Source: an uncultured virus (IMG/VR IMGVR_UViG_3300024308_000303) (Duplodnaviria; Heunggongvirae; Uroviricota; Caudoviricetes). From it: a stretch of 64,000 nt of DNA. The DNA lies in IMG/VR virus record IMGVR_UViG_3300024308_000303. One strand, written 5' to 3'. A program made the translations under genes and the position numbers. The notes beneath the pieces were generated by a model. That model saw nothing but the letters and a program-made list of their open reading frames with translations, searched no databases and had not been told where the DNA came from. The number at the start of each line of letters is the position of its first letter. Within the stretch, counting starts at the first letter, position 1. This document shows, piece after piece, positions 11,762-52,203 of the stretch.

Positions 11762-12070
11762 TTAAATATTCAAGATTTCTTTTTTGAATTCTGCTGACGG
11801 TTCAATATTATGTTCAACAATATAATGCATCAAGCCTTCTGGCCATTTCCAGTTTTTATGGCTATATTCGCCACTACCATTACAGGTTTTGCAACAACGA
11901 CAACTTGAAATACCTTTATAATGTACTTTTCTTGCTCGTTCCTCAACACTACGCAGTTTTTTAACCACAACATCTTTATCTGCAAATGGAACTTTTGATT
12001 CGACAGGAATTGGATATTCTGGTGACTGTTGTGACCACCAATAGCCTTCAATCTTTTCTTTAGATGACAT
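11762..12070 (-). CDS. Hypothetical Cys/His-rich phage-type protein
   Basis: YKGISSCRCC..NGSGEY..WPEGLMHYIVEH; AGGAG RBS. Confidence 0.8.
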   Translation of the reverse strand: MSSKEKIEGYWWSQQSPEYPIPVESKVPFADKDVVVKKLRSVEERARKVHYKGISSCRCCKTCNGSGEYSHKNWKWPEGLMHYIVEHNIEPSAEFKKEILNI

Positions 12071-12512
12071 AGTTATCTCCTAGTTGTTTTCTTAATGGAT
12101 AAATCGTAAATTCTGGGTTTAGCTTTGCTTCATGTCTTTCTGGATTGCGAATAAATGTGCGTAGAGTAAAAATACCGCGATCACGATCACAACTAACTTG
12201 AATATGATGGATTTGGTCGGTAAAGCACATACGGATGCCACCAGTATGTTCTGCATGCATGAAATAGAAGATTTCACACAAGTTACGCTCAAAAGTTGAT
12301 TTAACAATTTTCTTGATATACTCAGGATCAGCATTACGATCCATCAAACGATCAAGAAAGTGATCAGTAACTTGTACACGAATTTGTTTATCCGCTGGTA
12401 ATTTTGATTTAAGCGAATCATTTAACCCTTTCATGAATTCGCCAAAATCCATACGAGCATGAGAACGATTTCTATAACGTAACTGATAAAGTGGTTTAAT
12501 TTTCTCTTTCAT
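12060..12512 (-). CDS. Hypothetical protein, possible RelE/DUF4258-like RNase fold
   Basis: VTDHFLDRLMDR resembles the H-x-x-[DE]-R-x-x-x-R helix of such folds; C-terminal LRTF strand. The fold call is weak. Confidence 0.6.
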   Translation of the reverse strand: MKEKIKPLYQLRYRNRSHARMDFGEFMKGLNDSLKSKLPADKQIRVQVTDHFLDRLMDRNADPEYIKKIVKSTFERNLCEIFYFMHAEHTGGIRMCFTDQIHHIQVSCDRDRGIFTLRTFIRNPERHEAKLNPEFTIYPLRKQLGDNYVI

Positions 12513-19679: not shown

Positions 19680-19740
19680 ATCCTCCTACCTGTTAAGTTA
19701 GAGGATTATTATAGCAAAAAAGAAAACCTGTGTAAAGATT

Positions 19741-20930: not shown

Positions 20931-21398
20931 TCAATCATTTACAAATAATTCAATGTAGTTGTCTCGAATATATTTATAAATTTTAATATAGTTATCACCT
21001 CGATCATCAAATATAAAACCAGTTGTTGTATTATACGAATAATTAATATTAAATCGTTTATTATGGCTATCAAAATTCTTATCAATACAAGTAGGTATAA
21101 TAGCATGATGATTGAATTCATTGCTATTTGAAAATAAAGATGATTGCAAATTTAGATTAATTTTTGAAGCATATTTACTGATGAAATCTAAATCATTATA
21201 ATTTGATGCAATAAGGTTTTCTAAATCAATCTTTCTATTTTCAAAAAATGAAAACGGTAGATACTCATCGTTAGTACGTGGATAAGTGATAAAGCCATCT
21301 TTATACAAAAGATTCAAGGCTTCTATAATAGTAGTGTCATGCATACCAAGAATGTCAGCCTTATCAATAAGTTTTTTATAAGTAATTAGTTCTGGCAT
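20931..21398 (-). CDS. Stand-alone type IA topoisomerase catalytic-domain fragment
   Basis: LYKDGFITYPRT (catalytic Tyr motif) and HHAIIPT; no TOPRIM domain. Confidence 0.75.
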   Translation of the reverse strand: MPELITYKKLIDKADILGMHDTTIIEALNLLYKDGFITYPRTNDEYLPFSFFENRKIDLENLIASNYNDLDFISKYASKINLNLQSSLFSNSNEFNHHAIIPTCIDKNFDSHNKRFNINYSYNTTTGFIFDDRGDNYIKIYKYIRDNYIELFVND

Positions 21399-21412
21399 AC
21401 AATCCTCTGAAT

Positions 21413-21499
21413 TGGTGCGGATGAAGGGACTCGAACCCTTACGCCAAGATGGCCACGGCTTCTGAGGCCGTTACGTCTACCAAATTCCGTCACATCCGC
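21413..21499 (-). tRNA. tRNA-Leu(CAG)
   Basis: GCGGATG/CATCCGC acceptor stem; ACGGC-CTCAGAA-GCCGT anticodon arm; long variable arm; AAGGG-TTCGAGT-CCCTT T-arm; encoded ACCA. Confidence 0.96.
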
Positions 21500-27573: not shown

Positions 27574-28710
27574 TTAAGCTTCTTCTTCTGGTTCACCCGC
27601 AAATTCACCTAAATCAATTTGTTCTAATGACCAAACTTCACGAAGGCGATTGCGTTCATAGTAATCCAAATAGTTATTGGTTTTACCACGAACCAAGTTC
27701 ATAACAAACTTGAAGTGTGGATGATCTTTCAAATCCAATGCAACAGTTTTGAAATCAACACCAGCATAATGTTTAGCCAATGCAGTCACTTCACGTTCAA
27801 TTCCTTCAACTTCTGCTTTAATAGTATCGTTGATATAACGAATATGAGTCAAATCTGCATCTGGAGCATTTAATGCAACAAAAGCAATATAGTCGTCAAT
27901 TTGTTCTTCAACAACCATTCGAGCAATATCACGCTCACGAACAAAAGTAACAGCATGATGAAGATTAACATACCATTTGGTTTTAACCTTTACCATTTCA
28001 CCATTTTCAAACTGAATTACATAACCCTCAATACCTTCAACAGTATTAAGTGATTTAAGCAACTCTGGCAAATCCAATTCACGACCATGTACTGGGCTGT
28101 TAACTGGAATATCATATTTACTTGCAAGTTGTGCAAGTTCTTCTGGCATAAGGTATACACCAGTAAAGTTATCACGAACATGCAACAACGTCATGTTATC
28201 TTGAGAATAACGCAAAACAATACGGTGATTTGGTGAAGTGAACTCAAAAATAGGAGTCATGTTAGCCAAAGCACAATAACGAGTAAAATCATAATATTTT
28301 TGATTCTTTTGAACAAAAGCAGTAGCAGAAACAGCAACATCAGACTGGAATGATTTTTTAGATTTAGCAAAGAATTCACCATTGATAAGACCAGTAGTGA
28401 TCATTGAACCATCCATTTTATCAAAAGCAGCAACCATTTTATTCCAATCAAGGTTATGTGGCTGAACTTCTTCACGCTCCGCAAGGTTGAAGAACTTATG
28501 CAATGGGCGTGAAATGATCTTACCATCAACATCAAAGGTAATACCACGAGCTTCTTTTTCAAAGGAATTATTAAAAGATTCACCATTGCTAATGTTATAG
28601 CAAATTACAGTAGCTCCATTGGACTGTTTATTAACACCAATGTAGTCCTGATCCTTAACATAAGGCAAGATATCGTTTAAGTTTTCGATTTTAGGGAAAA
28701 GAGTAGACAA
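27574..28710 (-). CDS. rnlA: T4 Rnl1-like RNA ligase
   Basis: EARGITF, RPLHKFFNL, motif I KMDGS, FEFTSPNHRIV, motif IV EGYV, motif V KVKTKWY. Confidence 0.92.
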   Translation of the reverse strand: MSTLFPKIENLNDILPYVKDQDYIGVNKQSNGATVICYNISNGESFNNSFEKEARGITFDVDGKIISRPLHKFFNLAEREEVQPHNLDWNKMVAAFDKMDGSMITTGLINGEFFAKSKKSFQSDVAVSATAFVQKNQKYYDFTRYCALANMTPIFEFTSPNHRIVLRYSQDNMTLLHVRDNFTGVYLMPEELAQLASKYDIPVNSPVHGRELDLPELLKSLNTVEGIEGYVIQFENGEMVKVKTKWYVNLHHAVTFVRERDIARMVVEEQIDDYIAFVALNAPDADLTHIRYINDTIKAEVEGIEREVTALAKHYAGVDFKTVALDLKDHPHFKFVMNLVRGKTNNYLDYYERNRLREVWSLEQIDLGEFAGEPEEEA

Positions 28711-34571: not shown

Positions 34572-35657
34572 TTAGTTAAACTCTGTACCACCTTTTCGTG
34601 CTAAGTAGATTGCTGAAACACTTTTCAAAGCAACACGACCTACTTCTGGATCTCTACGCTGTACAAGTGGCTCAACAATGACACCTTCACGCATATGGAG
34701 TTCTTTACCTGAGTAAGTTTCCATACCATCAGTGTACTGCAACATAATTTCTTTACTGAATGGGCCTTTGTAAAGCACAGGAACACGTTGCAAACCAAAT
34801 TCAGCTAAGGTAGACTCTAAATCAGCATCATCAAGAGCACGAATACCACCAACACTACCTTTTTTACCTACGAAAATGTTGAACACTCTGAAATCAAACT
34901 TACCGTTATCTAAACCATAACGTAAATCTTGAACATCACCAAAAGTTTCACCAGCAATGTAAACGTTAGTCTGGAAACGGTCAGATAACGTCTCAGCAAT
35001 ACGGTACAAATCGAATTTGTGAGCAATACGAATGTAAGTGTTATTAGCATTACGCTCGTTGTCACGAATCACGATACCTTTGTTAAAGTTCCCTTTACTA
35101 CTTACAAAAGAGCGACCATTGACAATATTAGCAATAGGAGCAAGACCAAACAAAGAACCAACAATGGTAAATGTACCATGAAGCTTTTCAGTCATTGAAA
35201 CCAATTCACCTTCTTGAATAACATGTGGATAACGTTTCACGTTATCAATATCAAAAGTAAATACGTTTTCAAAACCAACATTTGAAACTTCGCCAGCAAG
35301 TTTTGCTGGAATAACTGGCTCATATTTGGTAATACCAAGCTTTTCAGCCATATCATCACCAACATTCCAACCATCACGGGCTTTGTAGCAAAGACCTTGG
35401 CTTAAAATGCCACGAAGCACACTAGCTTTTACACGATCTTTTTTAGAACCTGCAAGTTTACCCAAGCAGCCAACTTCTTCTTGAATGTATTCAGGCACCA
35501 AAGCACCTTCTGGAATATAGACAGCCAAGTCACCAGTTTTCAGATAACCTTTTTTAATAATTGAGAAAAAGTCACCAACGCGAGCCAGTTCAATAGCATC
35601 AGCATTAGGATGTGGTTCCACTATAACTGGAAGAACTGTTGCGTTAAAAGTTGCCAT
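34572..35657 (-). CDS. RNA ligase, DRB0094 family
   Basis: N-terminal HPNADAIELA/GDLAVYIPE and RGILSQGL; motif I TEKLHGT; GETFG; REGVIV; LKSVS..YL. Confidence 0.9.
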   Translation of the reverse strand: MATFNATVLPVIVEPHPNADAIELARVGDFFSIIKKGYLKTGDLAVYIPEGALVPEYIQEEVGCLGKLAGSKKDRVKASVLRGILSQGLCYKARDGWNVGDDMAEKLGITKYEPVIPAKLAGEVSNVGFENVFTFDIDNVKRYPHVIQEGELVSMTEKLHGTFTIVGSLFGLAPIANIVNGRSFVSSKGNFNKGIVIRDNERNANNTYIRIAHKFDLYRIAETLSDRFQTNVYIAGETFGDVQDLRYGLDNGKFDFRVFNIFVGKKGSVGGIRALDDADLESTLAEFGLQRVPVLYKGPFSKEIMLQYTDGMETYSGKELHMREGVIVEPLVQRRDPEVGRVALKSVSAIYLARKGGTEFN

Positions 35658-48430: not shown

Positions 48431-48491
48431 TTGTATAGTCTCACTGTTGATTTAATAAGGTAATTATAGCAAAAATCACCTCTAAAAGCAA

Positions 48492-51815: not shown

Positions 51816-51870
51816 TGTAATGCTCTCTTAAATTTTAAGAATTATAGCAAAATATTTAATTTAAATCAAT

Positions 51871-51893
51871 AAAAAAAGCCTCCGAAGAGGCTT
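51871..51893 (-). terminator. Intrinsic terminator of the 23S-mimic RNA
   Basis: AAGCCTC-TTCG-GAGGCTT followed by a T tract; same core as 666-686. Confidence 0.88.
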
Positions 51894-51897
51894 GTTT

Positions 51898-52168
51898 AAT
51901 TGGTGTGCTTGTACGCCAAACAGGATTAACCAAGACCACTACCATGGCACCTTGCCAAGTTTCATGGCAAGTTGGAGGCTTTAGCTGATTCGTCTTGAAT
52001 ATTTCTGGTTTACTTTAAAGTGGATTCGCCAAAAACACCCTTGTCTCAATTGTCCTTCGATAACCATTGTTTCCAATGTCGAAGTATGCCTTGCCTTAAT
52101 CCAAGCACCGATGGCCTTTGCCTGACTCTTTAAAGGATGGCTGCTTTTAAGCCCACCTTCCAATCAAC
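51898..52168 (-). ncRNA. Stand-alone structured RNA mimicking the 23S rRNA uL11-binding GTPase-associated centre (H43/H44)
   Basis: 52160-52127 GAAGGTGGGCTTAAAAGCAGCCATCCTTTAAAGA and 51916-51903 GCGTACAAGCACAC match 23S rRNA nt ~1055-1088 and ~1091-1104; closed by GATTGG/CCAATT; own promoter and terminator. Confidence 0.85.
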
Positions 52169-52174
52169 AAAACA

Positions 52175-52203
52175 ATTATAGCAAAATATTAATCAATATT
52201 CAA
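52175..52203 (-). promoter_or_regulatory. sigma70-like promoter of the 23S-mimic RNA
   Basis: TTGAAT-17 bp-TATAAT with extended TG; the -35 lies in the last codons of the upstream gene. Confidence 0.8.

Follow-up and report, generated by a model that had tools for sequence, protein, structure and literature searches.

A phage-encoded RNA family that copies the GTPase-associated centre of 23S ribosomal RNA

The stretch of DNA considered here (hereafter the window) comprises 64,000 nucleotides of an uncultured virus assigned to the Caudoviricetes (IMG/VR record IMGVR_UViG_3300024308_000303), and its minus strand carries, at 52165–51898, a 268-nucleotide RNA gene closely resembling the GTPase-associated centre (GAC) of 23S ribosomal RNA (rRNA), the uL11-binding domain. 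Such a copy had been proposed in a sequence-only reading of the window, made by a model without database searches, and the two segments it had read on the minus strand, 52160–52127 and 51916–51903, agreed with ours letter for letter. A blastn search of 5,426 complete Escherichia coli genomes matched the annotated 23S rRNA gene in every one (5,426/5,426), at a median of 7 places per genome and with 86–88% identity; at locus L039 the match covers annotated nucleotides 1054–1087, which are canonical 1055–1088, the annotation beginning one base late (canonical numbering is used below). Relative to this E. coli copy the RNA is identical at 30 of the 34 positions 1055–1088, the differences being U1058G, U1061G, G1068A and A1080C; the 29/34 counted in the sequence-only reading rises by one since the compared copy has A1056, like the window, and its count of 11/14 for positions 1091–1104 was exact (differences A1096C, U1097A and U1101A). 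U1058G and A1080C together are a compensatory change, just as had been proposed. The window RNA keeps A1067 and A1095, both as first read, and carries G1061, A1068, C1096, A1097 and A1101. At ≤3 mismatches the 21-mer AAGCAGCCATCCTTTAAAGAG has a single match in the window, and it had none in any of 100 shuffles (0/100).

The two ends of the RNA pair in a 6-bp helix, rebuilding the three-way junction of 23S nucleotides 1051–1108 (the tip of H42, H43 and H44); this helix, GAUUGG/CCAAUU, had been recognized from the outset as a substitute for the ribosomal one, and it is paired at 6/6 positions. The rRNA-like frame consists of the first 41 and the last 23 bases of the RNA, the 204 bases in between (52124–51921) being an insert. 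The gene has a promoter and a terminator of its own, both recovered by a signal scan in the form originally described (TTGAAT-17-TATAAT with an extended TG on the minus strand, and a UUCG terminator), and, judged from these signals, it is probably a separately transcribed unit (Table 1). The description of a GC-richer unit of ~270 nucleotides also held up, with a GC content of 0.44 in the RNA stretch vs 0.30 in the whole window. The statement that no credible open reading frame (ORF) was present needs qualification: a TTG-initiated ORF of 60 residues does lie inside the RNA (51981–52163, minus strand), but it is not conserved, the longest stop-free stretches in the two nearest relatives being 36 and 48 residues. 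Because the next gene has a separate promoter (51869–51841), the RNA is not that gene's leader. The promoter of the RNA (52203–52175) belongs to a recurring TTTTGCTATAAT class, one copy of which is 52186–52175; at ≤1 mismatch there are 18 such sites in the window vs 2.79 ± 1.74 in shuffles, and this extended -10 element looks like the phage's own promoter class. Fourteen of the 18 sites lie on the minus strand (e.g., 19708–19719, 48463–48474, 51841–51852 and 52175–52186).

Table 1. Features of the RNA gene and its signals, in window coordinates.
Feature	Position	Strand	Remarks
Promoter	52175..52203	-	TTGAAT, 17-nucleotide spacer, TATAAT, TG extension; 10/12 consensus matches
RNA proper	51898..52165	-	Self-closed copy of the 23S GAC plus inserted domain; end-to-end covariance-model match
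Closing helix, 5' strand GAUUGG (= H42 tip, nucleotides 1050–1055)	52160..52165	-	Pairs 6/6 with 51903–51898
H43 mimic, nucleotides 1057–1081 with 1067 loop	52134..52158	-	G1058-C1080 in place of E. coli U-A
Lone pair U1082-A1086 and junction G1087 A1088 G1089 U1090	52125..52133	-	GAGU in 56/56 of the family
Inserted domain, 204 nucleotides, between 1090 and 1091	51921..52124	-	Base helix CAGG (52124–52121) with CCUG (51924–51921)
Insert blocks common to related lineages		-	GCCAUCGGUG 52115–52106; GACAAGGG 52045–52038; CGAAUCCAC 52028–52020
Insert blocks common to related lineages		-	UCAGCUAAAG 51988–51979; GUGCCAUGGU 51950–51941; GUGGUCUUGGU 51939–51929
3' core: UUUG, H44 hairpin GCGUACAAGC (1091–1100), A1101 C1102 A1103 C1104	51903..51920	-	
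Closing helix, 3' strand CCAAUU	51898..51903	-	Pairs with GAUUGG
Intrinsic terminator	51869..51893	-	AAGCCUC-UUCG-GAGGCUU, then U run; 7 pairs, 4 G-C, loop of 4; hairpin 51893–51876
Separate promoter of next gene	51841..51869	-	TTGATT-17-TATAAT, TG

Pattern scans with exact core words showed that the window RNA has many relatives; as the family was collected in this way, every count is a minimum, the seeded half is conserved by construction, and the sequences are not independent. At least 104 unique RNAs were extracted, of 87–429 nucleotides (median 206) and nearly all on viral contigs. In IMG/VR a 21-mer of the 5' half found 35 loci, an 18-mer of the 3' half at least 119, and a variant 5' 22-mer 36, the other half being correctly placed in all 36 of these (36/36). 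Scans with subtype motifs, one of them of a metagenome, gave 124 loci with DNA to examine, only 6 of which (5 unique) had both cores, and a scan with GGTAGTGGTCTTGGT was set aside as noise, its at least 117 loci showing no core wherever DNA was available. A survey of 185,579 prokaryote species, represented by one genome apiece, yielded only 10 loci: three family members on contigs of metagenome-assembled genomes, four true rRNAs, two insert-less Nostoc copies and one chance match. The Nostoc copies (L041:582–641 and L044:584–643, from two assemblies) are self-closed GAC copies of ~60 nucleotides that lie outside rRNA genes and upstream of an uncharacterised ORF, and they have U1101, unlike the phage family.

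Among phage genomes, the 5' core matches unannotated gaps in the tRNA clusters of Pseudomonas phages pf16, Astolliot and UNO-G1W1, and both halves could be read in these three cultured phages (pf16 infects Pseudomonas putida and UNO-G1W1 P. fluorescens) as well as in Xanthomonas phage XacN1 and Aeromonas phage 4_4572. The pf16 copy (KU873925.1, about 29,600–29,415) is flanked by tRNA-Asn and tRNA-Pro and has an expected length of ~187 nucleotides. Paenibacillus phage Pd_22F was rejected as a member, as the match at its record end (L325) is genuine 23S rRNA; several short 'phage' records likewise hold genuine 23S rRNA, from host DNA or contamination, that could be mistaken for family members. 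Many carriers are large, 16 of the 35 contigs found with the 5' 21-mer exceeding 100 kb and 7 of 35 exceeding 200 kb, and five large carrier genomes have one locus each, with a possible weak second copy in one. Astolliot has, immediately upstream of its regular copy, a second and divergent RNA with a GAC frame (L002:1165–1490), whose insert resembles those of L032 and XacN1 (common GGGGAAGGA.AAG..CAGUUUG block). A megablast search with 8 kb around the window locus gave no match among 50,697 phage records.

A covariance model built from 24 relatives with the window excluded (R1) matched the window at 51898–52165 on the minus strand with 78.8 bits (E-value 1.3e-26) over model positions 1–160 of 160, and it had no other significant match in the 64 kb, the next being noise at 7.1 bits. 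Although made from phage RNAs only, R1 also matches E. coli 23S rRNA (L039:1296–1355; 55.2 bits, E-value 1.8e-18) and scores real 23S rRNAs at 48–66 bits over ~60 nucleotides, values which gauge the closeness of the phage core to the ribosomal domain; it gives the Nostoc copies 51.6 and 50.8 bits, and covers only 17 nucleotides of the second Astolliot RNA (14.9 bits). The window RNA carries the junction signature of the family (GAGU before the insert, UUUG after it, and A1101), lies in phage DNA (Rnl1, Rnl2 and RegB-like genes) and is co-oriented with the tRNA of the window. It is a member of this phage family of GAC-mimic RNAs.

The homolog search and covariation analysis named as a check in the sequence-only reading returned relatives in which the closing helix, pair 1058-1080 and pair 1082-1086 all covary. 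Of 91 unique RNAs, 64 have all six pairs of the closing helix (6/6), 19 have 5/6 and 8 have 4/6, with 70 different closing helices among them; shuffled partners gave a mean of 3.47/6 pairs, with 3.6% fully paired. We then scored an alignment of 47 members (A2) into which 19 core pairs were written: 97.9% of its 893 cells are paired vs 78.7 ± 0.8% in shuffles, none of 500 of which reached it (0/500), both sides change in 12 of the 19 pairs, double changes occur in 174 cells vs 42.9 ± 6.7, and the covariation score is 0.521 vs 0.133 in shuffles and ≤0.163 with slid partners. All six closing-helix pairs covary in A2, as do 1058-1080 (GC 23, UA 13, AU 10, GU 1), the lone pair 1082-1086 (UA 35, CG 6, AU 5) and the two innermost pairs of the insert base helix (GC 24/AU 20 and GC 32/AU 11); seven of the 19 pairs are invariant or vary only by mismatches and are uninformative either way. 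This pattern shows strong purifying selection on the GAC-like fold, and, together with the gene's own promoter and terminator, bears out the original suggestion that selection acts on the fold and that the RNA is not a decaying scrap of rRNA.

To avoid search-word bias in comparing individual bases, we scored each half only in RNAs recovered with the word from the opposite half: 56 unique RNAs from the 3' word served for the 5' half, and 28 from the 5' word for the 3' half. Invariant in 56/56 were G1055, G1059, U1060, G1063, U1066, A1069, G1071–C1075, A1077, C1079, A1084, A1085, G1087, A1088, G1089 and U1090 (GAGU being 1087–1090), and in the 3' half G1091, G1093, U1094, A1098, C1100 and A1103 were kept in 28/28, A1095 in 26/28, A1101 in 26/28 and the UUU after the insert in 25–27 of 28. 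As a control, 118 cellular 23S loci gave 53 unique 61-nucleotide sequences, none with an insert, in which U1065, A1067, G1068, A1070, A1095, A1096 and U1101 were each present in 53/53. Several positions, among them bases of the H43 loop, are relaxed in the phage RNAs: A1067 is found in 48/56, G1068 in 45/56, A1070 in 46/56, U1065 in 47/56 and U1061 in 39/56 (Fisher p 4e-5 to 6e-3 for the difference from cellular rRNAs, values that are indicative only, the sequences being related). The earlier emphasis on a retained A1067 is right for the window but does not extend to the whole family, and since the eight members without A1067 have eight different closing helices, its loss is recurrent. On the ribosome A1067 and its neighbours serve factors, tRNA and thiostrepton, and the part of H42 required by uL10 is absent from the phage RNAs. 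From the relaxed H43 loop and the invariant fold it follows that the fold and protein face are kept and the factor-contact bases are not, a pattern that favours an off-ribosome mimic of the fold and uL11 site over a full factor-site decoy. As a family mark, A1101 (cellular U1101, 53/53) argues for one origin followed by spread among phages over repeated capture from hosts.

Across the family, inserts of 23 to about 370 nucleotides follow position 1090, and these differ widely between lineages and are conserved within them. The commonest insert module (CACCCC..GGUAAGG, 11 nucleotides before the 3' core) occurs in 34/104 members and is absent from the window, and the shortest member, L297, has 87 nucleotides with an insert of 23; because members go down to this size and no insert module is universal, the core appears sufficient. 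Six blocks of the window insert are common to two other lineages (L038/L333 and L330–L332), and among the window and these lineages the base helix covaries (CAGG/CCUG, AGGG/CCCU, AGAG/CUCU). The inner insert helices are predictions from five sequences, and the constrained minimum-free-energy fold of the RNA is likewise a prediction; RNAalifold, applied to three sequences, did not recover the closing helix, and the pairs it placed in the insert do not covary. The insert as a copy of another part of rRNA, e.g., the sarcin-ricin loop, was rejected: when 39 family RNAs were compared by blastn-short with the complete E. coli rrn operon, significant matches arose only at 1059–1100, the rest being chance-level matches of ≤13 nucleotides. 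A resemblance to RNase P or to a tetraloop receptor, suspected by eye, was dropped as it had no Rfam support.

In character the window appears to be an early or accessory part of a very large phage genome, and it is collinear over ~20 kb with a 437-kb viral contig (98% complete) that has the RNA at the matching place, the neighbouring proteins being ~30–65% identical. The genes of the window include those for a RegB-like endoribonuclease (12063–12512), Rnl1-like (27574–28710) and Rnl2-like (34572–35657) RNA ligases, a NUDIX protein, an AlkB-like oxygenase and a signal peptidase; 82 of the 95 ORFs had no Pfam match, and none of the 95 matched a ribosomal-protein family in Pfam. In XacN1 the RNA copy, which by its sequence has its own terminal hairpin and T run, directly follows a 2'-5' RNA ligase gene (L323:230–880), and RNA-repair genes thus recur in the wider neighbourhood in both the window and XacN1. 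We found no partner gene: among 21 unique loci with 6-kb flanks no protein family was shared beyond single lineages, bar a protein of ~470 residues with DUF2828 and DUF7788, which occurs within 6 kb of the RNA in 6/21 (L287, L288, L298, L301, L315 and L297), four of them of one lineage. A bL12 C-terminal-domain match exceeded the Pfam cut-off in 2/10 carrier records, a count without a control set. Small phage proteins with the factor-docking motif of the bL12 C-terminal domain were seen at G002:C1:131946–132035 (L327:1465–1671) and L328:1132–1719; in a 519-kb phage one such protein, a weaker match, is encoded ~2 kb upstream of the RNA, another is in UNO-G1W1, and there is no bL12-like motif in the window.

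Transfer RNAs are frequent neighbours, with at least one within 450 nucleotides of the RNA in 54/103 unique relatives, all 123 such tRNAs (123/123) being on the RNA's strand, and one within 30 nucleotides in 41/103; the other 49/103 have none within 450 nucleotides. Wider flanks of 6 kb, available for 36 loci, contain up to 19 tRNAs per locus, all of them co-oriented with the RNA. The sole tRNA of the window (Leu-CAG, 21413–21499) is on the RNA's strand, 30 kb away. This tRNA has a long variable arm, and the 155-residue ORF directly downstream of it (ORF and tRNA together span 20934–21499) matches only the middle of the Topoisom_bac profile (126–251 of 411) and may be a split or fragmentary gene. 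One family member of 126 nucleotides sits next to a GOLLD RNA, whose 3' part, truncated where the locus ends (L004:1–324, 124 bits), is ~110 nucleotides upstream.

No Rfam 15 family covers the RNA, as the sequence-only reading had anticipated: at gathering score the only match in the window was the tRNA (21416–21499), and 20 relative loci were also without a covering family. The split, partial large-subunit (LSU) rRNA match that it had expected did not materialize, there being no LSU match at gathering score in the window or at E ≤10 around the locus, where the flanks are promoter, terminator and phage ORFs; weak LSU matches appeared on only 3/20 relative loci. Sub-threshold candidates were discarded, namely Atu_C8 (30.3 bits vs a gathering score of 50, the best near the locus and largely terminator), rsmX (22.7 bits vs 56, mostly the terminator hairpin with a few low-confidence flanking pairs) and SpF39, whose match rests mainly on the terminator hairpin.

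Comparison with known systems gives no close counterpart. The phage RNA shares with the 23S GAC (E. coli nucleotides 1051–1108) the junction, the H43 and H44 hairpins with their loops, the lone pair 1082-1086, U1060 and A1088, but differs from it in being a separate gene with its own 6-bp helix of free sequence and an insert after 1090, in having A1101 for U1101, and in the relaxation of several H43-loop bases. The leaders of ribosomal-protein operons, such as the rRNA-mimicking L1-binding leaders and the L10 leader (Rfam RF00557), which we take to imitate a neighbouring part of the same stalk base, resemble it in that an RNA off the ribosome imitates an rRNA site for a ribosomal protein, uL11 binding being a proposal here. 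However, those leaders are cis-acting, loose imitations that precede the gene of the bound protein, whereas the phage RNA is near-exact, stands alone or in tRNA arrays, and in the window is separated from the next ORF by terminator 51893–51876 and promoter 51869–51841; Rfam leader families such as L10_leader had no match in the window. GOLLD (RF02032), like ROOL and the stable RNAs of the T4 tRNA cluster, is a structured phage non-coding RNA (ncRNA), unexplained in function and often found near tRNAs, but the window RNA has no sequence or model match to GOLLD, ROOL, HEARO or other Rfam families, and we know of no case in which GOLLD, ROOL or the T4 stable RNAs copy an rRNA domain. With decoys such as 6S RNA and the CsrB/RsmX-type sponges it would share a principle, that of an abundant RNA imitating a natural nucleic-acid ligand to compete for a cellular protein, although their ligands and folds differ from those of the phage RNA.

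Full-text searches of the literature gave no description of such an RNA, and we found no account of a mobile element with a self-standing gene that copies an rRNA domain; with the nearest analogies, the ribosomal-protein leaders and the protein-sponge RNAs, the phage RNA has just mimicry as a principle in common. In the text of PMC10690425, which lists 10,006 unnamed viral RNA candidates, 23S, L11 and GTPase do not occur, and the core word is absent from the part of its supplement that was covered; the family may be present, without a name, in three large supplementary files. The terms rRNA, ncRNA and RNA ligase are absent from the paper on the XacN1 genome (PMC5852040). What the window adds is a solitary copy flanked by a promoter and a terminator of its own, an insert subtype without the common module, an orthologous placement between two distant giant phages, and a comparison of kept and relaxed bases with cellular rRNAs.

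As to function, we give about even chances to the reading that this is a stable, trans-acting phage ncRNA that would work away from the ribosome as an imitation of the uL11-binding domain, its likeliest ligand being host uL11. A search of five large carrier genomes turned up no phage gene for uL11 (0/5; the control was positive in 14/14 genomes), so any uL11 bound would be the host's. Host uL11 is the best candidate because, in addition to this, U1060 and A1088 are invariant, the A1067 region is relaxed and the H42 part is absent; contact would most likely be made through its C-terminal domain, which a passage of PMC2175356 describes as binding this RNA tightly and hydrogen-bonding the U1060-A1088 pair. 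The RNA might sequester uL11, whether free or exchanging, or it might present a uL11-RNA surface. RelA needs uL11, and fewer uL11-bearing ribosomes could, speculatively, mean a weaker RelA response; this need makes an effect on the stringent response plausible, but any link to RelA or ppGpp is conjectural. A more specific proposal, to which we give less than even odds, is that host uL11 is captured by the RNA, perhaps along with bL12-like proteins of the phage, and that translation is retuned as a result, e.g., by giving RelA-blind ribosomes. Several points weigh against uL11 as the ligand or soften the case for it: free uL11 pools are small; the conserved bases also hold the fold together, and conservation cannot separate uL11 binding from another need for the fold; the relatives were found via exact core words and are not independent; and, when folded thermodynamically without constraints, the complete RNA is of unremarkable stability (z = -1.86, 3/100 shuffles as stable).

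Of the other explanations, we regard as unlikely the one in which the rRNA-like frame is a stable, nuclease-resistant holder, comparable to tRNA-like frames, and the variable insert does the work. The inserts are indeed large, lineage-conserved and diverse between lineages, their base helix covaries, and the closing helix would protect both ends; however, the 87-nucleotide L297 manages with a 23-nucleotide insert, no module is universal (34/104), and G1093, U1094 and A1098 (28/28) and A1095 (26/28), which we take to be exposed loop bases, are kept more strictly than a holder would be expected to need.

It is rather improbable that the RNA is a sponge for agents that hit this rRNA site, whether GAC-directed toxins or defence enzymes, modifying enzymes or thiopeptides. 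Of the loops in the family, that of H44 is the most strictly kept, the window and XacN1 loci lie among RNA-repair genes (Rnl1-like, Rnl2-like and RegB-like in the former, 2'-5' RNA ligase in the latter), and such an enzyme has one precedent, as the type VI secretion system toxin Tre23 is described, in passages of PMC8661411 and PMC9990079, as ADP-ribosylating 23S H44 at 1095–1098. Yet according to a passage of PMC8661411, Tre23 left purified 23S rRNA unmodified, as it did ribosomes without tRNAs or factors, so a free decoy would be no substrate for it; we found no anti-phage system aimed at this site in the literature, and A1067, the thiostrepton-critical base, is present in only 48/56.

A decoy of the factor site, in which the RNA, alone or with uL11 and phage bL12-like proteins, would engage GTPases, RelA or tRNA elbows off the ribosome, is in our view decidedly improbable. 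The GAC is a docking site of translation factors (in passages of PMC2175356 and PMC8661411), phages are described in part of PMC6375957 as encoding bL12-domain proteins that keep uL11- and EF-contact residues, and such domains do occur in two of ten carriers, with the weaker match close to the RNA in the 519-kb phage. Set against this, A1067, G1068 and A1070 vary in the phage RNAs and never in the 53 cellular rRNAs, the H42 stem for uL10 is replaced by a 6-bp helix of free sequence, the window lacks a bL12-like motif, and the two-of-ten count has no control set behind it.

We consider it very unlikely that the RNA is an element of tRNA arrays, i.e., a spacer fold that guides cuts by RNase P, Z or E or protects neighbouring tRNAs: the proximity and uniform orientation of tRNAs at many loci would fit, but nearly half of the relatives (49/103) have no tRNA within 450 nucleotides, the window copy has its own promoter and terminator with its tRNA 30 kb off, the XacN1 copy has its own hairpin and T run, and a mere spacer would have no call for tertiary-contact bases conserved as tightly as in rRNA. 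Finally, a captured or decaying 23S fragment, host contamination or an assembly chimera, which the high rRNA identity and the true contamination in phage records (Pd_22F and many short records) might suggest, is refuted by flanks that are not rRNA, by H42 strands replaced with covarying self-closing sequence, by A1101 (26/28 vs U1101 in 53/53 cellular rRNAs), by the RNA's own promoter and terminator and by its orthologous position in the related 437-kb phage, and we give it next to no credence.

If the reading of an off-ribosome uL11-site mimic is correct, large phages encode, in addition to tRNAs, a free-standing replica of the uL11-binding GAC, which would be an unrecognised route by which a phage could influence translation or stress signalling in its host. 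With at least 104 unique members the family is large, and it is easily recognised and present in the cultured phages pf16 and UNO-G1W1, so that these ideas are directly testable. For structural biology it offers a natural series of GACs with inserts, one that separates the bases needed for the fold and protein face from those needed for ribosomal function. Should the RNA in fact capture uL11 and so retune translation, it would be the first virus-encoded decoy of an rRNA domain, the stringent response might then, for example, be unable to shut down phage production, and a new layer of phage control over translation would stand beside the phage tRNA sets.

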